A stretch of 64,000 bases of DNA. Origin: a virus (taxonomy: Duplodnaviria; Caudoviricetes). The DNA is taken from the IMG/VR virus record IMGVR_UViG_3300026442_000101; one strand, written 5' to 3'. Made by a program: the position numbers and the translations under genes. Positions 44,816 to 58,561 of this stretch are shown one piece after another. The notes under the pieces were generated by a model that worked only from the letters and a program-made list of their open reading frames with translations, made no database searches and was not told where the DNA came from. How positions within the stretch are numbered: position 1 is the first letter of the stretch; every line of letters starts with the position of its first letter.

Positions 44816-46438
44816 TTACCAGGACTTCGGCTTATCGGAGGGGCGACCACGACCACCGCGATCGCGGTCATCACGATCGTCACGACGGGTGTCGCGATCG
44901 TCACGGCGACGGTCATCGCCACGACCTTCTTGACGACGCGCTTCACCACCTAGGATGATGCGTGGTTCGTCTACATGGCTCTTGTTCTGACCCGAGCGGA
45001 CGTTGGCCAGACCGGCCGACAGATCAATGATGCCCTTGGCGAGCTGATCTACCGAACGGAGACTATTGTCCATGGTCATTGCACAGCAGCCGCTGGCGAA
45101 GGCCGGGAAGCGGAAGCTCTGCTCGCGACCACCGTCCAGCTTGATACGGATACGGATCTCGGTATCGATGTTCGCATCAATTGTAGCTTCTATATCGAAC
45201 ATGCCGCCTTTGGATACTTCTTCAAGCAGTACGTGCTCGCACTGATCTTCGAAGTACGCGAAGTTGGCCTTTACCGACAACCCTTCGACGAACGGAGCGA
45301 TCGGGCCGGTAAGCACCTTGTACTCGCCTTGACGGGCAAGGTTGGTGATTCGCAGGCTCTTCACTTCCGAATACATCGAATTGATCATGATGCCCGGCAG
45401 AGTGTTCGCAATGATGGTAGCTGCGATACATTCGTTGGTATCTTCGTTCCAGCTGTTGAGCTGGTTGAAGTCTTCACGGGACGACTTGTACGGCTTGAAG
45501 CCGAGCTGTTCGTCTTCGTTGAAGTCCGGGTTCATGTCCATCAGTTCGCCGAACGTGATGTAGCCGGAGGCCAGGATGTTCGAATCGCGCTTGATCGACT
45601 CGATGAACGGATCCTGTTCGATCTGGTTCTCTTGAACCTTATCGAGTGCCGAGGCGATGGTTTCTTCACGATCGTCATCACCCAGATACGCGGACGACGG
45701 CGCACCACTTGCTGCGACGTAAGCATTCAAGCTACGCTGCATGAAGTTGGTCGGACTGTTGTTCGACAGGTTCGACGCGCGCAGGGCGGTACTGAAAGCA
45801 CCCGACAGGTTGACAACATCGCTGTTGTTCTGGCGGATATGTGCACCGAACGAAGACTCAGAACCACCGCGACGGAAGATGTCGGTTGGGCGCAGAGTCA
45901 CTGGACGATCGTCACCCTTACCGGCACGGGCACCAGCTTGGCCGGTTAGACCAGAGCGGCGCAGGATCTGGTCATGCTGCTGAATACGCGGCTGCCAGAC
46001 CTGCTTGTTCCGCCCATCTTCACGGAAGTTCGACAGGGTCATGTGAACCCTGGTGATCTGGTTGAAGTACATCCTCATGTTCCGGTCGAACCGAATGGTG
46101 CGGTTCGAGATCTTCGACAGCTCAGCATGGTCGGTGTAACCTACGATGTACTCGTAAGTCTTACCGCCGGAACGGTCCAGGGTGGCAACTACCATCCCGA
46201 ACATGATGCGCTTCTGATCCCAGCCGTTGTCGATGAACGACTTATGTTTCCGGCGGGACGATGGACCGATAAGTGGAGACGCCACCTTCGCCAGACGGCT
46301 GGAGGTAAGACGTGTGCCGCCCTCGGTAGCCTCGGCGAACAGGTCGATGTGGTGACTCTTGAGCGAGTGGTCGATCGGGCGGATAAGTGGAGCATCCGTA
46401 CCCGCTTGCTCAATGAACACCAGTTTAATCAGTTCCAT
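44816..46438 (-). CDS. Probable phage-nucleus import protein PicA/Imp1 (phiKZ gp69-like)
   Basis: 540 aa directly after the gp68-like gene; N-terminal LVFIEQAGTDAPLIRP; Arg/Asp C-tail; assignment mainly by synteny and size. Confidence 0.65.
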   Translation of the reverse strand: MELIKLVFIEQAGTDAPLIRPIDHSLKSHHIDLFAEATEGGTRLTSSRLAKVASPLIGPSSRRKHKSFIDNGWDQKRIMFGMVVATLDRSGGKTYEYIVGYTDHAELSKISNRTIRFDRNMRMYFNQITRVHMTLSNFREDGRNKQVWQPRIQQHDQILRRSGLTGQAGARAGKGDDRPVTLRPTDIFRRGGSESSFGAHIRQNNSDVVNLSGAFSTALRASNLSNNSPTNFMQRSLNAYVAASGAPSSAYLGDDDREETIASALDKVQENQIEQDPFIESIKRDSNILASGYITFGELMDMNPDFNEDEQLGFKPYKSSREDFNQLNSWNEDTNECIAATIIANTLPGIMINSMYSEVKSLRITNLARQGEYKVLTGPIAPFVEGLSVKANFAYFEDQCEHVLLEEVSKGGMFDIEATIDANIDTEIRIRIKLDGGREQSFRFPAFASGCCAMTMDNSLRSVDQLAKGIIDLSAGLANVRSGQNKSHVDEPRIILGGEARRQEGRGDDRRRDDRDTRRDDRDDRDRGGRGRPSDKPKSW

Positions 46439-46468: not shown

Positions 46469-48061
46469 TCAGCGTTGGAATTCGTCGATCTTGATAAGCA
46501 ATTCGGCGAGTTCATCACGCAGGTCGGTGGATGGTTCGAGACGACGCGTTACGTCCACTCGGTTGTAATCGCGGCCTAGCTCTTTACAGCAGTGTGGTTC
46601 CCAGTCATATTTGAAGAACGCCACTGCGACCTCCTCGACATCACGTACCCCTACGTTGGTCGAAGTGGTAAGCTCGCTACGTTTACCTTCTGGAATCTTG
46701 TACGGATAGATGATATCCAACATCTCCAGGTTCTTTGCGTTGATCTTCAAACGAGAGATCGGTGTCGGTAACTCACCTTCCTCGAGATAGATCGGTGTTG
46801 CGGTCAGCAGCACAGCCAGCTGTTTGAATCCCCAATTCCACAGCACTGACTGAGCGATACCCATCGTGGTCAGCAGCGTCTTCCGGTCAAACATCTCCGG
46901 GACACAACCTGCGATTACGGTGGACATTACCCAGATGCAGAGCGTGATCTGCTCATCGCGAGGATCGAAACGATCCAGGTTCTGAGTTTGGCTCACGCAT
47001 TTCTCGATCCGTTCCGGTGTAAGGTTCGGGTCGATGTCGGCAGCTGCCTTCAGATACTTCATGACGTACAGTCGGAAGATCGCCAAGTCGCCGGTACTGA
47101 TCGACTCTTTCATCTTGAAGACACACCAGACTGATCCATTCGAATCGTCCATCATGCCTTCATTGTCGGTTTTCTTCCGGATGTTGTTTCCGAAAGCGGC
47201 CGGCATGCGGTTGTTCTTACCGCAGACGTAGTTGTACACGATCTTCATCAGGTGGTCTTTATCGGTCAGGGCCGACAGAGGCGCCACCGACAGTTTCCTG
47301 ATCGTTGCCAGAGAAACCAGGTACTTCGGAATCTCTTCGCTGGAAAGGTGCTGGAACACGATTGGAAGCTCGAAGTCATCCTCATCAATGTTCGCCCGAA
47401 CGTAAGTTTCCAAACGCGCGAATGCCGGGCAGTCGAACAGCCGGGAACGCTCCAGCAATTGGAACGCCTCGTACTCTTTCCACTTAGCTCCTTTCTCTTT
47501 ACCGACGATCGGCAGGTACGCGCCCCAGACCGGAACCATGCACCGAGTACCCAGAGCCGCTGCGGTAAGATCGATGTACTCGCTCTTACGGTAGGTACGC
47601 TCCATGTAGATCGGCGTGATCTTATCGGTCGTTTCGTACTTGTCCGACAGTTCTGGCGGCAGCTTGATCTTCGGGTTGTTGACCACGTATTCACGCAGGT
47701 CTTCGAACAGCACGATATCAAAGATGCCGGTCACTACCTCGGCCAGCAAGCTGTCCAAGGTATCAGATTCCGTTTCGGATGGTGCGAATTCCCCGTAGGT
47801 ATCGAGAATGGTTTCCAGACGAGCGTAGCACTCGTACAGAGCCAACTGTTTATCTTTGGGGAGTCTTGCGATGAATTCGTTGATCTCCTCGAACAGTTCT
47901 GTTCTATGCCCGAGCTCGAACGAATCGTCTTGCCTGATGGCACCAGGTTTAGCATTGGCGTAGCCACCGGCGTTTACGACGATCTCGTTCTCCCCTTCGT
48001 GACTGATCGTCACCATGGAGAAACTTCGTTTCGTATACCCCGAGATTGTAAATTCCATCAA
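46469..48061 (-). CDS. Probable nvRNAP sigma-like subunit (phiKZ gp68-like)
   Basis: 530 aa; position between gp67- and gp69-like genes; ERTYRKSEYIDL segment; synteny. Confidence 0.7.
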   Translation of the reverse strand: MMEFTISGYTKRSFSMVTISHEGENEIVVNAGGYANAKPGAIRQDDSFELGHRTELFEEINEFIARLPKDKQLALYECYARLETILDTYGEFAPSETESDTLDSLLAEVVTGIFDIVLFEDLREYVVNNPKIKLPPELSDKYETTDKITPIYMERTYRKSEYIDLTAAALGTRCMVPVWGAYLPIVGKEKGAKWKEYEAFQLLERSRLFDCPAFARLETYVRANIDEDDFELPIVFQHLSSEEIPKYLVSLATIRKLSVAPLSALTDKDHLMKIVYNYVCGKNNRMPAAFGNNIRKKTDNEGMMDDSNGSVWCVFKMKESISTGDLAIFRLYVMKYLKAAADIDPNLTPERIEKCVSQTQNLDRFDPRDEQITLCIWVMSTVIAGCVPEMFDRKTLLTTMGIAQSVLWNWGFKQLAVLLTATPIYLEEGELPTPISRLKINAKNLEMLDIIYPYKIPEGKRSELTTSTNVGVRDVEEVAVAFFKYDWEPHCCKELGRDYNRVDVTRRLEPSTDLRDELAELLIKIDEFQR

Positions 48062-48094
48062 CCCGCTCCGGTTTGTTTACTGCGCTTCTATTAC

Positions 48095-48123
48095 ATAATG
48101 TGGCATTGTAGTAATTTACACTG
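48095..48123 (-). promoter_or_regulatory. Putative promoter CAGTGTAAATTACTACAATGCCACATTAT
   Basis: Near-identical 29-bp element at 58736-58764; lies 33 nt before the ATG. Confidence 0.7.
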
Positions 48124-48140
48124 CCGCGGCACAAAGCCCC

Positions 48141-48168
48141 GCTACATGCGCCTTTCAGCGCATGTAGC
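48141..48168 (-). terminator. Hairpin after ChmC-like gene
   Basis: 11-bp stem GCTACATGCGC/GCGCATGTAGC; weak U-tract. Confidence 0.55.
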
Positions 48169-48183
48169 TTGGCCGGATTGCCA

Positions 48184-48975
48184 CTAGAACGGAATGTCGT
48201 CGTCGAAGCCGTTGTCATCCATCGCTGGTACTGGGACCGATGGTGCTTGGCGCTGCTGTTGCTGGTTGTTCTGGTAGTTGCTACCGCCACCGCCGTTATT
48301 GCGCTGCTGGTAACCACCCTGACCACCCTGACCACCGCCTTGGGCGCGCTGCATGTTTTCCAGGCGGCGACGCTTCTGGAACTCAGGCTCTTGCCAGTTC
48401 ACGGTGTAGTGGGTGAAGTAAACTTCGGTCAGAGCTTCGGCCCAGGCGATTGCCGCGATCGAGGAACTGATCTTGACATCAACCGGCTGACCATTCTGCA
48501 TGATCGGGTGGAACTCGTCGCTCGCGAACTCGAAGATCACGTCGTCTTTGCCCTTGGCGGTAACGCCGAAGGTAATCACGCCGTCTTCGCGCTTGGCGAC
48601 TTGGAAACGGGAGATGATCATGCGCTCTTTCGAACGGACGTTCTTACCGGCGTCTTTGTCCCACATGAATGGGTGACCCCAGTTGTCCATTTCGAATTCG
48701 CACGGCACCTTAGACTTGGCGACGTTGATGATCAGGTTCATCAGCGATTTGAATGGACGTGGCGCCATCGGCGTCTCGATCTTGATCGGATAACCTTCTT
48801 TGCCGTTGCGGCCTTCGGTTTTGATACCGAGGTCAGCTTCCAGCACCGGGTTGTTTTCCGACTTCTTCAGTCGCAGCATCGACTGACGACCGTCAGGACG
48901 CAGGGCCGGGCCATACAGGCGCAGCTTGGTGTCGTCTACCGCGGTAGGGTCTTTGCGTGGTTTTTGCTCAGCCAT
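48184..48975 (-). CDS. Probable ChmC/Imp6-like nucleic-acid-binding protein (phiKZ gp67-like) with G/Q/N linker and SSB-type DDDIPF tip
   Basis: Start reset to ATG 48975 (GAGG); C-terminus GGGQGGQGGYQQRNNGGGGSNYQNNQQQQ...GFDDDIPF; synteny before gp68-like gene. Confidence 0.65.
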   Translation of the reverse strand: MAEQKPRKDPTAVDDTKLRLYGPALRPDGRQSMLRLKKSENNPVLEADLGIKTEGRNGKEGYPIKIETPMAPRPFKSLMNLIINVAKSKVPCEFEMDNWGHPFMWDKDAGKNVRSKERMIISRFQVAKREDGVITFGVTAKGKDDVIFEFASDEFHPIMQNGQPVDVKISSSIAAIAWAEALTEVYFTHYTVNWQEPEFQKRRRLENMQRAQGGGQGGQGGYQQRNNGGGGSNYQNNQQQQRQAPSVPVPAMDDNGFDDDIPF

Positions 48976-49029
48976 TGTAGCGCCTCGTTGGGGGATATTG
49001 GACATTCCATTGTCCGGGTCAATAACAAA

Positions 49030-49887
49030 TTACGACCGATACAGGTCTTTCACCAACATCTCAAGAGCAGGGTCGCGACGTTCCACAATAGTGGCGATCA
49101 CGAAGTCCTTGGTTGATGCAGGAGACCAGTTGTTCTTCTGGGCTACTTCGAGGACCCGTTTACGGATCTTGATCGGCATAGGCGAGAAGACCACCCCATC
49201 TCCAAACATCTGCAAGGTCATCCTATCAAATGGGATGTTAGGAGTCTCCTTACCGTTCTGGAGTTTGGTGTTCCACATAAGAGGTGTCTTCACAGAGCCC
49301 GTATGCGACTCTAGGAGCGCGAGAGAACTGAACCGGTACCTTTGTAGCAGGTCGATCGGATAGTGCGTCAGGATGAGCCCGTCGCCCTGTATATCGGGGA
49401 AATCGGTGACGTACTGGCTGATAGGCGTGGTCGCCTTGAAATCTTCGCGCAGATACTTAATCACCGCCGTCTCCAACTGCCAGTAGAACTTCTGAGCTGG
49501 CGTCTGGATAGGTTTGATGAGAGCCTTGCTGAACTTACGCCCCACGTCGATATGGGTGCAGTAATAAGTAGCAACGGCACAACGACCGTCACTGTGTTCA
49601 GCAACCACTGACTCGATAGTGCGGATCTCAGAAGCGATAGCCTCAGCGATCGTGTACTCTTCCAGCAGGGGGCGCTGTGAGGCCTCCAGCGTGTTGTACA
49701 GGTTGCGCAGCAATGTCCTGACGTTGAGCATCAGGATATCACGACGGCCGATCTCAGGAGCGTCTGTGGGCGCCTCAGGTAGGATACCAATTGCCGACTC
49801 GATCGCCAAGCTGGTCGGGATCGAAATGGGAAACTGACCCATCGTCCGGTCAGCAAGTAGTTCTCTCGAATAATCATCGGCAGCCAC
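49030..49887 (-). CDS. Conserved core protein (gp66-like; possible PIN/5'-nuclease fold)
   Basis: 285 aa; DILMLNVRTL and LTHYPIDLL segments; fold is inference. Confidence 0.55.
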   Translation of the reverse strand: MAADDYSRELLADRTMGQFPISIPTSLAIESAIGILPEAPTDAPEIGRRDILMLNVRTLLRNLYNTLEASQRPLLEEYTIAEAIASEIRTIESVVAEHSDGRCAVATYYCTHIDVGRKFSKALIKPIQTPAQKFYWQLETAVIKYLREDFKATTPISQYVTDFPDIQGDGLILTHYPIDLLQRYRFSSLALLESHTGSVKTPLMWNTKLQNGKETPNIPFDRMTLQMFGDGVVFSPMPIKIRKRVLEVAQKNNWSPASTKDFVIATIVERRDPALEMLVKDLYRS

Positions 49888-49905: not shown

Positions 49906-51078
49906 TCAGGCAGCCAACTCCATCTCGATGATCTTCATGACTTCTTCGTCAGTCACGTCAGAGAACCTTGGGAGCATCAGCTCTTTAAGGTTGTCTTCAC
50001 GGATGGACGTCATCACTGGAGTGTCGATCAGGTTGTCAGTCGTCTCGGCTCGTTCTTCGACCTCGATGACTTTGGTGCTGATGTTGAAATGGGGGAATAG
50101 GTTCTTGACGCGACTCAAGGCAGCATAAGCTTCGTCTTCTCGACTGAGCTTCAGACGGAAGTGGCTACCGTCAGGATGTTTGGCTACCTTATTAATCGCA
50201 CCCACGGTTTCGGCGTACGACTTACCTACCACATCTAGAGTCATCCATGTGGTGGCTGCGGTGTTAACCACAAAGGTTTCTTCAAGCACACTCTCGGTCG
50301 GCGACCAGGTGAAGAAGTAGAAGCCTTTGTCGTGTTCTTCGTTATGCCGCAAACGCTCGACTGAGCCGGGCACACGGATCTTTCCATTAGCCTCAGGATG
50401 GTGATGGTGGCCAATGATGATTCGATCGCGCACGATACCTTCGTACCGTTCTTCCAGGTGAGTGGCGATGCTGCGCACAGGTTCCTGGAATGTGAACATG
50501 CCGTGCATAACGGCGAAGTCCACCTTATCTAGCCCCTTCTCCTTCATCAAGCTGACGACTTGTTTCCACGTCTTGTTAGCATCGTGGTTAACTTCGTCTT
50601 GGATAAAGAGGAAGGTTGGGCCGCCCGGGAAGAGTTCATCAATGACGATGTTCTCGTAGTACCGGATATCTGCATTGGACTGCGTACTCTTGTTAGAGTG
50701 CAGGAACCAACGGGACTGGCGGTTGTCATGACTTGGCGTACCTTCGAGGATCAGCCATATCACGCTCTTACGTTTAGCCTGTCTGGACTTTCGGTCCATC
50801 CAGTCGCTGATGAGCAGAGCATCATCGCTATCGTGAGCTAGGCGCTTATCGAATAAGTCACCCGATACGATAACGACGTCGACTACCTCCATCACTTCAT
50901 CGGTCATGATGGCATCGCACGTCTCGATGACCTTACGGGTAGGCACCCGCCCATGACCCATGTGCACGTCACTGATGCAGAGGAAGTTCAGGCAGCCGCT
51001 AGGTGCGGCTACCGGAGTCCACTTGTTCAGATTGGCGAACTTAAGTTTGTGCTCAGAGTTCGTACTCTTCATCTTCAT
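49906..51078 (-). CDS. Mre11/SbcD-like metallophosphoesterase nuclease
   Basis: SDVHMGH, SGDLFD, GTPSHD, HG, GHHH, PGSVERL; start reset to ATG 51078. Confidence 0.85.
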   Translation of the reverse strand: MKMKSTNSEHKLKFANLNKWTPVAAPSGCLNFLCISDVHMGHGRVPTRKVIETCDAIMTDEVMEVVDVVIVSGDLFDKRLAHDSDDALLISDWMDRKSRQAKRKSVIWLILEGTPSHDNRQSRWFLHSNKSTQSNADIRYYENIVIDELFPGGPTFLFIQDEVNHDANKTWKQVVSLMKEKGLDKVDFAVMHGMFTFQEPVRSIATHLEERYEGIVRDRIIIGHHHHPEANGKIRVPGSVERLRHNEEHDKGFYFFTWSPTESVLEETFVVNTAATTWMTLDVVGKSYAETVGAINKVAKHPDGSHFRLKLSREDEAYAALSRVKNLFPHFNISTKVIEVEERAETTDNLIDTPVMTSIREDNLKELMLPRFSDVTDEEVMKIIEMELAA

Positions 51079-51730
51079 CGATTCCAGCATCGGGCTTCGG
51101 CAAGGCAGCTGGAGTGGCCTTAGCGTCACGTCGGTTGAGTTCGGCTTCCACATCAGCCGCCATCTCACCGAGAAGCTCGCTCAATGGTAGATTGTAGCGA
51201 TGGTAGATGTGGACCAGCGTCACCAAGTGACGGGTACGCTCTACGTGTTCGGTCTTCGGTTCGAGAATCTCTACCAGCTCGTTCTCTACCTCGAAGGCTT
51301 TACGTTGATCGCCGTTATCGAACATGTGGCCTTGCATATCCACCAGCTGGTGGATAGAGACCATGCCTTCCGCGCCTTTCTTGTTTCGAGGCGGGATGTC
51401 CATAAATAAAGGCGGGGCGGTAAAGAGTAACTGACCCCTGGCGTCGGCTACGCTCAGCGAGTTGTTCAACCCACCGGCGAGGTTAAACCAGATGCCCGGT
51501 TCTGCTGGATCTTTGGGATCGTTCTTCACCCACTTGCGCAGGATCGGCAGCAGTACGTTGACGAAGTAAGGCTCGGGGACATAACGCTGACGCCTTGCGC
51601 TTTCTTCGTTGATCTCGGATACGGCACCATCCATGGACTGGAGGCCGGCCATGATCATTTCCTGATAGATCTTCGAGCCCTTGTCTACTGGCTGCTTCTT
51701 ATCTTCAGGCTTTTTCGTGGGTTCGGACAT
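51053..51730 (-). CDS. Conserved hypothetical protein
   Basis: 225 aa from ATG 51730 (AGGAG RBS). Confidence 0.65.
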   Translation of the reverse strand: MSEPTKKPEDKKQPVDKGSKIYQEMIMAGLQSMDGAVSEINEESARRQRYVPEPYFVNVLLPILRKWVKNDPKDPAEPGIWFNLAGGLNNSLSVADARGQLLFTAPPLFMDIPPRNKKGAEGMVSIHQLVDMQGHMFDNGDQRKAFEVENELVEILEPKTEHVERTRHLVTLVHIYHRYNLPLSELLGEMAADVEAELNRRDAKATPAALPKPDAGIDEDEEYEL

Positions 51731-51772
51731 AAAGACTCCTAATGCCCGGCCGGAGCCGGGCACCGCAGATGG

Positions 51773-56494: not shown

Positions 56495-58561
56495 TTAGTA
56501 GTCGCGGCCACCGAACAGACCACTGCCACCGCGGCGATCGTTGCGGTCGCGGCTGTCGCGGTCGGAACCACGGCGGCGTACGACACCAACGTCCGAAGCG
56601 GACAGGCTGGAGTAGCGGCTGTTGCCTGCGTGGCGACGTGCGTTCAGACCGTCGGACGAGGTTTGGTAGCTGGACATGTTGGCTGCATCGATTGCGAGCG
56701 ACAGCGCCTCGATGTAGTCAGGGTCGAAGGCCAGCATTTCGGCGGTGTCAACCACGCGGATGCCAGGTACGACTTGCTGCTGCATGCGGTAGCGCTCGGA
56801 CAGGTTGTAGCCCAGGCCGTGGTAGGTGTCCTCGAAGGTGTACTGGAAGTCAGCGGCACGATCCGCGTTCTTCTCACCGTACGAGGTCAGCATCGACTGA
56901 ACGTTCCACTCGCGCAGGTCGCGGGTGTTGCCCTTGTCGTCAACCCAGGTGCCGATCAGCACGCGAGTACCCATGGATTCAACCGGCACGCGATCGGAGT
57001 CGCTGCCAACCAGTTTCTTCCATTCGCGGCGGAAGTGGCCGTCGGTCAGAACGTCGGCGCTGTCGAACAGCACGCCAACCAGGGCTTTGACTTCGTCGCG
57101 GTCTTTCGAGGTAGCGATACGCTCGAAGATGCTCAGAACCCAGGACTTCTCGCCGGAGGACGGGATGGTCAGACCGAATGCCAGGTCAGGCAGAACGGTG
57201 ATGTCCAGGTAGTCCAGCAGCTCGTCGTCGGTCATGTTCTGACTGACGTCGTCGTAGACCTTGGCCAGGTCCTTGTCCGGGTGCAGCAACATCAGGTTCT
57301 CGATGTGGCTGGTCGGAGCCATGGTGCCACCGCCTGGCGCAGCGATTGCGGCGCGTGGGCGCAGCAGGTTGGCCGAGCGGTTGTCGTTCGACTGAACGGC
57401 GATCTGAGCCAGCAGCAATTGTGCCAGTTCCAGACTGAACGGGAAGTTCCCCGCCGGAGCGATGGAGTTCACGTTCATGACGCCCTGCCAGAACGGCTCG
57501 AGCTGGTCACGGTTGTTGCGACCACGGCCACGGCCACGGCGGCGACCACGATCTTCACCACCCGAGCTATCCACCAGCACCAGGTCGAGACCGGCACGGA
57601 TTTCGCCCATCGGGGTACGATCGTAACGCTCGTCGTCGTCACGGCTTGCTTCGCTGTAGTACAGCGTCGCGGTCACGTCGGAACGGATCTGCAGACCGCT
57701 GGAGTCTTCGCCCGGTTTGCCCGAGTTGTCCCAGCTGGTTTCCAGACGCGCGCCTTTGCCGATCATGTTCGGGTTCAGGCGGATCTGGCTGTTACGCTTG
57801 CCACTGATGCGATCGACGATGTTCTCGCGAACGCCGCACAGCGCGTCCAGAACGTTGTCGAAGATGCGGTCGATGACCGGCGATGGGGTCTTGCTGTCGA
57901 CGTCGCCCAGCTTGCCGACGACGCTGGTGAGCAGAACCTGCTTGCCCACGACCTGGATCTTCGAGTTGACCAGCAGGCCACGCACTTGATCTTCGATCGC
58001 TTCGCGATACGCCTTGGTGCCCAGCTGATCTTCCGGCAGAACCAGAGCGTCGTAGCTGTCGCCGCGGTCGGTCGACTGGCGGGTTTGCACGCCGTTGGCG
58101 TTCTCGATGGTCAGCACGTACACCAGGGTGTAGTTGCTGGAACCGATGGTGGTTGGCAGAACGACCAGAACCGAGCTCAGGCTGGAGCGAGCAAGCGCAC
58201 CGTCCAGAGGCAGGATCTTGAAGCGATCACGGCGGATGGCTTCCGGCACGTTCGGCTTGTCGAAGGTTTTGTTCGCATCGAATGCCTGGATCAGGCGCTG
58301 GAGGGCTACGTCGCCCAGACCGCCGGAGGTTGGACGCACGTTGAACGCACGGCCCATGTCGGCGATGGTGAAACCACGTTGCTTGCCATCATCTTCATCA
58401 TCGCGGCGGTCACGGCCACGACGCTCTTCACGATCGCCGGAGCGGGTATCGCGATCGCTGCTGCGGCGCTCTTCGCGCGGCTGTTCACGACGATCATCAC
58501 CGGAGCCGGACTTGCTGCCGCCTTCACCCAGTTCGAAATCGTTGTCTTGGTTGTCGCTCAT
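56495..58561 (-). CDS. chmA: Chimallin, phage nuclear shell protein
   Basis: 688 aa immediately upstream of RNAP beta' (canonical block); RVLIGTWVDDKGNTRDLRE and LAFGLTIPSSG segments; own promoter and terminator; highly-expressed codon bias. Confidence 0.85.
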   Translation of the reverse strand: MSDNQDNDFELGEGGSKSGSGDDRREQPREERRSSDRDTRSGDREERRGRDRRDDEDDGKQRGFTIADMGRAFNVRPTSGGLGDVALQRLIQAFDANKTFDKPNVPEAIRRDRFKILPLDGALARSSLSSVLVVLPTTIGSSNYTLVYVLTIENANGVQTRQSTDRGDSYDALVLPEDQLGTKAYREAIEDQVRGLLVNSKIQVVGKQVLLTSVVGKLGDVDSKTPSPVIDRIFDNVLDALCGVRENIVDRISGKRNSQIRLNPNMIGKGARLETSWDNSGKPGEDSSGLQIRSDVTATLYYSEASRDDDERYDRTPMGEIRAGLDLVLVDSSGGEDRGRRRGRGRGRNNRDQLEPFWQGVMNVNSIAPAGNFPFSLELAQLLLAQIAVQSNDNRSANLLRPRAAIAAPGGGTMAPTSHIENLMLLHPDKDLAKVYDDVSQNMTDDELLDYLDITVLPDLAFGLTIPSSGEKSWVLSIFERIATSKDRDEVKALVGVLFDSADVLTDGHFRREWKKLVGSDSDRVPVESMGTRVLIGTWVDDKGNTRDLREWNVQSMLTSYGEKNADRAADFQYTFEDTYHGLGYNLSERYRMQQQVVPGIRVVDTAEMLAFDPDYIEALSLAIDAANMSSYQTSSDGLNARRHAGNSRYSSLSASDVGVVRRRGSDRDSRDRNDRRGGSGLFGGRDY

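Follow-up and report, generated by a model that had tools for sequence, protein, structure and literature searches.

ChmC, also designated Imp6, has been described in the phages PhiPA3 (gp61), phiKZ (gp67), Goslar (gp176), and 201phi2-1 (gp123), and its published fold is of the Whirly type (PMC11077065). The PhiPA3 protein is a homotetramer that binds single-stranded DNA (ssDNA) with a dissociation constant (Kd) of 184 nM, prefers RNA approximately threefold, and was bound to phage mRNAs in enhanced cross-linking and immunoprecipitation (eCLIP) analyses; it is made early and in abundance, is proximity labelled from nuclear UvsX, and leaves small nuclei when knocked down (PMC11077065). ChmC copurifies with ChmB and RNA polymerase subunits (PMC11077065) and with Rhc, an RNase H-clamp protein that has been described as a subunit of DNA polymerase (PMC13648698), and Imp6 binds Imp1 directly at a 2:1 ratio (bioRxiv 10.1101/2024.03.27.586873). 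Enustun et al. divided the ChmC tail into an N/G-rich region and an S/D/E-rich "electronegative cluster", which they read as limiting nonspecific RNA binding, and ascribed the formation of condensates to this tail (PMC11077065). [quoted passage not shown] Since the ATG at 48975 is preceded by GAGG 7 nt upstream and the equivalent Met opens all close orthologues (MAxxKPRK), the true start is probably this ATG (263 residues) rather than the one at 49005 (273 residues). The final third of the ORF is rich in G, Q, and N and is followed by a short Pro/Ala/Val stretch, by MDDNGFDDDIPF, and by the stop codon; after the G/Q/N-rich run, the C-terminus reads PAMDDNGFDDDIPF, of which the final seven residues are FDDDIPF. 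An earlier, sequence-only reading of the locus had centered on 48184 to 48420, which corresponds to residues 196 to 273 of the 273-residue ORF. The gene and its parts are as follows.

48184 to 48975, minus strand: coding sequence of the ChmC/Imp6 orthologue, 263 residues when read from the preferred start (273 residues for the longest ORF, which opens at 49005).
48337 to 48921, minus strand: predicted Whirly/PUR-like nucleic-acid-binding domain, residues ~29 to 223 in 273-residue numbering (AlphaFold2 models, Foldseek, VIA-align).
48208 to 48336, minus strand: disordered G/Q/N-rich linker, residues ~224 to 266, with a predicted local distance difference test score (pLDDT) below 60 in both models and hypervariable among orthologues.
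48187 to 48207, minus strand: tip FDDDIPF, resembling the SSB C-terminus (SSB-Ct), residues 267 to 273, with the stop directly after it; identical to the end of E. coli SSB.

The protein matched phrog_3284 (E = 4.7e-31), the family that also contains PhiPA3 gp61 (E = 6e-81) and phiKZ gp67 (E = 6e-80), and a profile of its clade aligned with PhiPA3 gp61 in hhalign with a probability of 96.7% (E = 3.7e-10, 211 columns). In this alignment, the PhiPA3 basic residues K30, R35, and K59, which are three of the six mutated in that protein, correspond to R40, R45, and K69 of the window protein. The nearest cultured homologue, that of DT01, is only ~26 to 28% identical to it; the phiKZ and PhiPA3 homologues were undetectable from the window protein by simple search, and the protein had no Pfam match at E ≤ 0.1, hence neither to PF00436 nor to the Pfam Whirly family. 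The genes around it follow the order SbcD-like, gp66-like, ChmC, gp68-like, and Imp1 (PicA)-like, which is that of phiKZ gp65 to gp69, PhiPA3 gp59 to gp63, pPa_SNUABM_DT01, and Goslar. This gene order, the phrog_3284 match, the profile-profile match, and the Whirly/PUR-type model presented below confirm the protein as a ChmC/Imp6 orthologue, the identity that the sequence-only reading had proposed from synteny.

The last seven residues (F267 to F273) are identical to the end of E. coli SSB (...PPMDFDDDIPF), in which DDDIPF is the known SSB-Ct interaction hexapeptide (PMC5872125). When a HMMER profile of the 22 closest orthologues was searched against 177,635 PDB sequences, the best matches were the SSBs 1eqq_A (E = 0.044) and 7f2n_A (E = 0.1), and these matches spanned the linker and tip only (profile positions 214 to 263). 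The window tail also scored z = 7.5 against composition-preserving shuffles in comparison with the SSB tail. Among all stop-to-stop frames of at least 60 residues in the six frames of the window, the ChmC ORF alone ended in the motif [DE][DE]x0-1[ILVMF]Px0-1[FWYML]. Chance or composition was considered as the source of the tip likeness and rejected on the basis of these three results. When the linkers alone were compared with that of E. coli SSB by Smith-Waterman alignment, the shuffle z was 2.9 for the window protein, 0.2 to 4.3 for members of its clade, and ~0 for phiKZ, PhiPA3, and DT01. Since linker similarity is significant in some clade members and absent from others and from phiKZ, PhiPA3, and DT01, the tail may either have been captured from an SSB or have arisen by convergence.

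We then examined the tip across the family. The closest metagenomic orthologues (n = 21; 40 to 83% BLASTP identity) form, with the window protein, a clade of 22 sequences. All of them keep F-D-x-[DE]-[DE]-[ILV]-P-F, and F267, P272, and F273 are invariant (22/22), whereas the linker varies in both sequence and length. When 1.84 billion representatives were searched exhaustively with a profile, 504 relatives were recovered at E ≤ 1e-3; the best 149 new representatives among them, clustered at 50% identity, were checked together with three cultured homologues. Of these 152 sequences, 148 were also recovered when the profile was restricted to the globular domain, which means that they had not been selected by their tips, and the tip statistics rest on these 148. 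The last position is F in 59%, M in 14%, W in 9%, L in 7%, and Y in 4% (hydrophobic in 93%); position -2 is P in 76%; position -3 is I, L, V, F, or M in 90%; position -4 is D in 77%; positions -5 and -6 are D or E in 84% and 69%, respectively; and position -7 is F in 32%. Right-justified information content was 1.8 to 2.7 bits at each of positions -1 to -6. It dropped to 0.9 bit at -7 and to 0.4 to 0.8 bit farther into the linker, where the values reflect composition only. The family consensus tip is FDDDIPF, even though domain identity among family sequences is merely 20 to 30%. Judged from these alignments, the tip carries the signature of a family-wide short linear motif that closes a disordered linker.

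Most cultured phages show the tip, with variations:

PhiPA3: FDDEIPNF
phiKZ: FDEDMPSF
DT01: FDDDVPL
Goslar: AFDGLAF
201phi2-1: SFDW
Derbicus: FDEMF
Simmy50: ADDLPF
RSL2: FDDISF
Moabite: FDNDIPW
FLC4-3B: SDDIPW
Bacillus phage AgentSmith: FDTDVPM
phiKp_32: AEDIPF
PhiEaH1: FDSDIPF
LPKP23: FDNDVPW

The window tip is the exact SSB heptapeptide, whereas the tips of the experimentally studied proteins are derived (IPNF in PhiPA3, MPSF in phiKZ, GLAF in Goslar). Tips differ among phages of one host: IPNF, MPSF, and VPL in Pseudomonas aeruginosa phages; DEMF, DDLPF, and DIPF in Erwinia phages; and DIPF, DVPW, and DVWG in Klebsiella phages. On a FastTree tree of 150 leaves, which is poorly resolved at 20 to 30% identity and gives only rough counts, the terminal residue changed at least 45 times (51.7 ± 1.5 in shuffles) and losses or regains of the Pro-Phe end numbered at least 37 (49.5 ± 3.4 in shuffles). 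Lineage-specific tip types, as a sign of a coevolving partner, were set aside, as this structure is only modest (45 against 51.7; 37 against 49.5). Natural tip variants also occur among cultured chimalliviruses: the protein at the ChmC position of Vibrio phage C-ZP2022 (positions 514 to 1212 of that phage's stretch) ends in ...NEDDGWE and lacks the G-rich linker, and that of KpGz_1 ends in ...DDDVWG.

AlphaFold2 was run twice on the window protein, with alignments of 22 and of 150 sequences. Mean pLDDT was 78.5 and 87.4, respectively, with domain blocks at 95 to 99; the models are confident for residues ~12 to 226, and residues ~224 to 273 fall below 60 in both. The best Foldseek matches were Trypanosoma brucei MRP1/MRP2 (E = 3e-4 to 5e-4), followed by plant Whirly proteins and Pur-alpha. 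VIA-align returned StWhy2 (Z = 9.2; root mean square deviation, 4.2; 133 residues aligned), MRP (Z = 8.4), PBF-2 (Z = 8.1), and Pur-alpha (Z = 7.4). Identity to the Whirly/MRP structural matches is only 8 to 14%, so the likeness is purely structural. No SSB or OB-fold chain was among the structural matches listed by Foldseek and VIA-align, in which Whirly/PUR folds lead over the whole domain. Given this positive assignment over its full length, the modeled domain is of the Whirly/PUR type, the fold published for ChmC, and an OB fold is unlikely; the candidate explanation that the protein is simply an OB-fold phage SSB was rejected on these matches and on the absence of a Pfam SSB match.

The protein resembles two kinds of known protein in different parts. 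With published ChmC/Imp6 members, it shares membership in phrog_3284, the gp65-to-gp69 position, the Whirly-type fold, and a disordered N/G/Q-rich region with an acidic end. With bacterial SSB (E. coli; PDB 1eqq and 4mz9), it shares a domain predicted to bind single-stranded nucleic acid, a disordered linker of the G/Q/P type, and the identical FDDDIPF end, and condensates have been reported for both ChmC (PMC11077065) and bacterial SSB. In contrast, bacterial SSB is an OB-fold tetramer of family PF00436, whereas the window protein is Whirly/PUR-like in its model and has no PF00436 match; the studied ChmC homologue prefers RNA; and the tip of the ChmC family is far more variable than that of SSB. 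The G/Q/N linker with an SSB-like DDDIPF tip and the fold-linker-tip layout noted in the sequence-only reading were both upheld, albeit with a Whirly/PUR domain in place of an OB fold, and the tip proved conserved in the 22 close orthologues and the 148 representatives alike. The best structural matches, plant Whirly proteins (StWHY1/PBF-2, 1l3a; StWhy2, 3n1h) and T. brucei MRP1/MRP2 (2gia, 2gje), are tetrameric binders of ssDNA or RNA with no detectable sequence similarity to the window protein.

The other features of the locus and its surroundings are as follows.

46469 to 48061, minus strand: non-virion RNA polymerase subunit, homologue of phiKZ gp68 and PhiPA3 gp62, next gene downstream of ChmC (phrog_3209, E = 1.9e-92).
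44816 to 46438, minus strand: Imp1/PicA homologue (phiKZ gp69; phrog_3141, E = 1.2e-63; BLASTP against phiKZ gp69, E = 7e-23).
49030 to 49887, minus strand: phiKZ gp66 homologue, next gene upstream (phrog_3229, E = 4.9e-79; BLASTP against phiKZ gp66, E = 4e-42, 35% identity).
49906 to 51168, minus strand: SbcD-like nuclease subunit at the phiKZ gp65 position (phrog_100, E = 2.2e-42).
56495 to 58561, minus strand: chimallin, the nuclear shell protein ChmA (phrog_4795, "nuclear shell protein", E = 1.7e-24).
48141 to 48168, minus strand: hairpin of 12 pairs with a 4-nt GAAA loop, 16 nt past the ChmC stop and inside the 122-nt gap before the next gene.

The gp68-like subunit had tblastn matches in 165 chimallivirus-type phage records, PHIKZ068 among them. 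The SbcD-like protein matched Pfam Metallophos at 21.1 bits (E = 4.8e-4), marginally below the curated cutoff of 21.5 bits. The window also encodes split multisubunit RNA polymerase genes and a phiKZ-type DNA polymerase. Because it carries a chimallin gene, the phage is, by its gene content, an uncultured nucleus-forming jumbo phage (chimallivirus). Its chimallin is quite divergent from cultured ones, and the neighbouring proteins are ~30% identical to those of the nearest phage, DT01; this divergence indicates a deep, uncultured chimallivirus lineage. The window has a G+C content of 54%, and megablast against phages returned no match for it.

Several further observations concern these genes. 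The Imp1/PicA homologue ends in an Arg/Asp mixed-charge tail of ~40 residues (44816 to 44945, minus strand) that is absent from phiKZ gp69 in the BLASTP alignment. Directly upstream of the SbcD-like gene, a 236-residue protein of phrog_5171 with no assigned function (51053 to 51763, minus strand) has the acidic tail ...GIDEDEEYEL; apart from ChmC, no long frame of the window but this one has an acidic-hydrophobic end. In Erwinia phage Simmy50 (positions 1 to 1500 of that phage's stretch), the small genes gp246 and gp247 are inserted between ChmC (gp245, ending in ADDLPF) and the gp68 homologue, which breaks the otherwise fixed adjacency of the two. RNA from 48062 to 48190 (minus strand) folded at -53.3 kcal/mol (z = -3.97; 0/200 shuffles folded as well), and the U-run of the hairpin at 48141 to 48168 is only weak. 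A terminator is annotated at the equivalent position in Serratia phage Moabite. Lying between the abundant early ChmC gene and an RNA polymerase subunit gene, the hairpin may serve for attenuation, termination, or processing of the transcript.

PhiPA3 ChmC lacking residues 204 to 251 lost condensates and shell localization but kept tetramers and RNA binding, and a tail deletion of Goslar ChmC supported nucleus growth but did not rescue titer (PMC11077065). Since charge alone leaves the conserved Pro and the hydrophobic last residue unexplained, we infer that the C-terminus may dock into a pocket, like that of SSB-Ct in its complexes. Our favoured proposal, in which we place roughly even confidence, is that it docks on a phage-encoded partner at the nuclear shell or within the nucleus. 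The Whirly-fold domain would bind single-stranded RNA and DNA, as a homotetramer in the case of the PhiPA3 homologue, and the G/Q/N linker would provide reach and the weak self-association that underlies condensates, as in the SSB tail. The last six or seven residues would then serve as the docking peptide, inserting their hydrophobic end and free carboxylate into a basic-rimmed pocket of another protein. Candidate partners are Imp1/PicA, whose gene lies two genes away, the RNA polymerase subunit gp68, ChmB, and Rhc. Through the tip, ChmC tetramers loaded with RNA would be tethered to the machinery of transcription, export, or import. A phage partner fits the loss of shell localization upon tail deletion, the complex known to form with Imp1, and the variation seen among tips, including that between phages of one host; the copurification of ChmC with ChmB, RNA polymerase subunits, and Rhc likewise makes it plausible.

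A number of observations weigh against this proposal. AlphaFold2 docked the tail nowhere with confidence with either alignment, and tip pLDDT was ~50. Vibrio phage C-ZP2022, KpGz_1, Goslar (FDGLAF), and 201phi2-1 (SFDW) have noncanonical tips, and the exact FDDDIPF of the window clade fits host SSB partners equally well. The published deletions removed linker and tip together, and their phenotypes were ascribed to the loss of condensates, with the tip not singled out (PMC11077065). Finally, the Imp1 pulldowns used FLAG-tagged Imp6, and the text leaves unclear which end carried the tag (bioRxiv 10.1101/2024.03.27.586873); if it was the C-terminal end, then Imp1 binding needs no free tip.

Alternatively, the tip could bind ChmC's own basic nucleic-acid face, within its tetramer or on an adjacent one, where it would compete with RNA or ssDNA in an auto-inhibitory manner and supply multivalent condensate contacts with no external partner. 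We hold this idea tentatively, as a genuine but less likely alternative. The tips of E. coli SSB and T7 gp2.5 bind their own DNA-binding folds, which counts in its favour, and tolerance of F, M, W, or L at the last position would suit a shallow hydrophobic site. In plant Whirly proteins, a conserved C-terminal acidic-aromatic pair (Glu-Trp) touches a Lys in the Whirly domain and dampens the binding of ssDNA, which rises when the Trp is mutated (PMC9070903), although that pair lies near the domain, whereas ChmC has a long linker followed by D-D-I-P-F. The "electronegative cluster" interpretation and the loss of condensates with retention of RNA binding and tetramers in the tail deletion are also consistent with self-docking (PMC11077065). 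On the other hand, the model built with 150 sequences left the tip off the domain (a weak negative, at pLDDT of ~50), a conserved Pro at -2 together with a strictly C-terminal placement typifies carboxylate-anchored docking in a partner's pocket, and the loss of shell localization with the tail demands at least an indirect link to shell proteins.

Overlapping with docking on a phage partner is the unlikely reading that ChmC doubles as the single-strand-binding protein of the phage nucleus, coating ssDNA, R-loop strands, and mRNA while its tip brings in replication, recombination, and RNase H enzymes of the phage itself, in the manner of SSB, T4 gp32, and T7 gp2.5. In T7 gp2.5, whose acidic tail ends in Phe, and in T4 gp32, which has an acidic C-domain, the tail recruits the phage polymerase or helicase and vies with DNA for occupancy of the binding cleft; both are OB-fold proteins with neither a long G/Q/N linker nor a Pro-Phe end. 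Searched in all six frames, phiKZ, PhiPA3, DT01, and Goslar yielded no SSB of the classic (PF00436), gp32 (PF08804), or Enc34/T7 (PF10991) type, which favours this reading, although the PF08804 and PF10991 searches had no positive control and a divergent SSB could escape them. The classic OB-fold SSB is moreover listed, in a comparative study, as a trait of group 2 jumbo phages and not of the phiKZ group (PMC7824862). The early, abundant, UvsX-labelled PhiPA3 tetramer with its 184 nM Kd for ssDNA, the small nuclei upon knockdown (PMC11077065), and the copurification with Rhc (PMC13648698) fit as well. However, the preference for RNA and the phage mRNAs bound in eCLIP argue against it, and growth of the nucleus with tailless Goslar ChmC implies that the tail is dispensable for bulk DNA replication (PMC11077065). 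In its fullest form, which we likewise consider doubtful, ChmC would be the missing SSB of nucleus-forming phages, having gained an SSB linker and tip by convergence or capture and organizing Rhc, UvsX, and DNA polymerase on ssDNA and at R-loops in addition to acting as an mRNA chaperone, and clades with FDDDIPF could engage host partners also.

The sequence-only reading had suggested instead that the tip imitates SSB-Ct to recruit or import host SSB-interacting enzymes, or to keep host nucleases outside the nucleus; we find this improbable. Even on their own, short peptides of SSB-Ct bind ExoI, RecQ, PriA, chi, and RNase HI. The window protein has the identical last seven residues, and 22/22 close orthologues keep [DE][DE][ILV]PF and a Phe at about -7. 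In addition, ChmC is abundant and located at the shell (PMC11077065), and the Imp system imports at least one host protein, TopA (bioRxiv 10.1101/2024.03.27.586873). Against this, phages of proteobacterial hosts carry IPNF, MPSF, VPL, GLAF, DEMF, DISF, DIPW, and DVPW. The proteobacterial hosts in the sample would all be expected to have the DDDIPF SSB tip. A tip held by many fixed host pockets should be as frozen as SSB's own, which is nearly so by comparison, whereas that of ChmC changed its Pro-Phe end at least 37 times and its terminal residue at least 45 times on our tree. Furthermore, no host SSB partner appears among the ChmC interactors in the ChmC, Imp, and Rhc papers and reviews. Since phages of the same host differ in their tips and the end residue changes often, host SSB partners are disfavoured as the general target, and a phage-encoded partner or self-docking fits better; on this comparative evidence, host-enzyme recruitment is unsupported and somewhat disfavoured as the function of the family, whereas cross-binding of the window clade's exact FDDDIPF to host partners is plausible. 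Docking on a phage partner, on ChmC itself, and on host proteins are not mutually exclusive.

Finally, the likeness might be a by-product of low-complexity composition without specific function, as the compositional bias of the linker and its inconsistent similarity to SSB (z of 2.9 in the window protein, 0.2 to 4.3 in its clade, and ~0 in phiKZ, PhiPA3, and DT01) would allow, but this is highly improbable given that the six or seven terminal positions are sharply conserved between domains only 20 to 30% identical and that the motif occurs once among the long frames of the window.

An SSB-type reading of the ChmC tail is absent from the ChmC literature that we searched: no link between ChmC and SSB is made in the ChmC paper (PMC11077065), reviews, the Imp preprint (bioRxiv 10.1101/2024.03.27.586873), or the Rhc preprint (PMC13648698), and the ChmC paper, the reviews, and the Rhc preprint do not contain the term SSB at all. 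The window alone adds modestly to the family, contributing a divergent 22-sequence clade with the exact bacterial heptapeptide at its tip. The tip reading also touches an old gap, namely, the lack of a recognised SSB in phiKZ-like phages. Chimalliviruses cannot do without ChmC/Imp6, which may act in mRNA export, protein import, or both. If the last six or seven residues are a conserved SSB-type docking peptide, the "condensate" and "docking" roles of the tail would become separable, and it could become possible to identify the protein through which ChmC is connected with the shell, with RNA polymerase, or with the machinery of replication.

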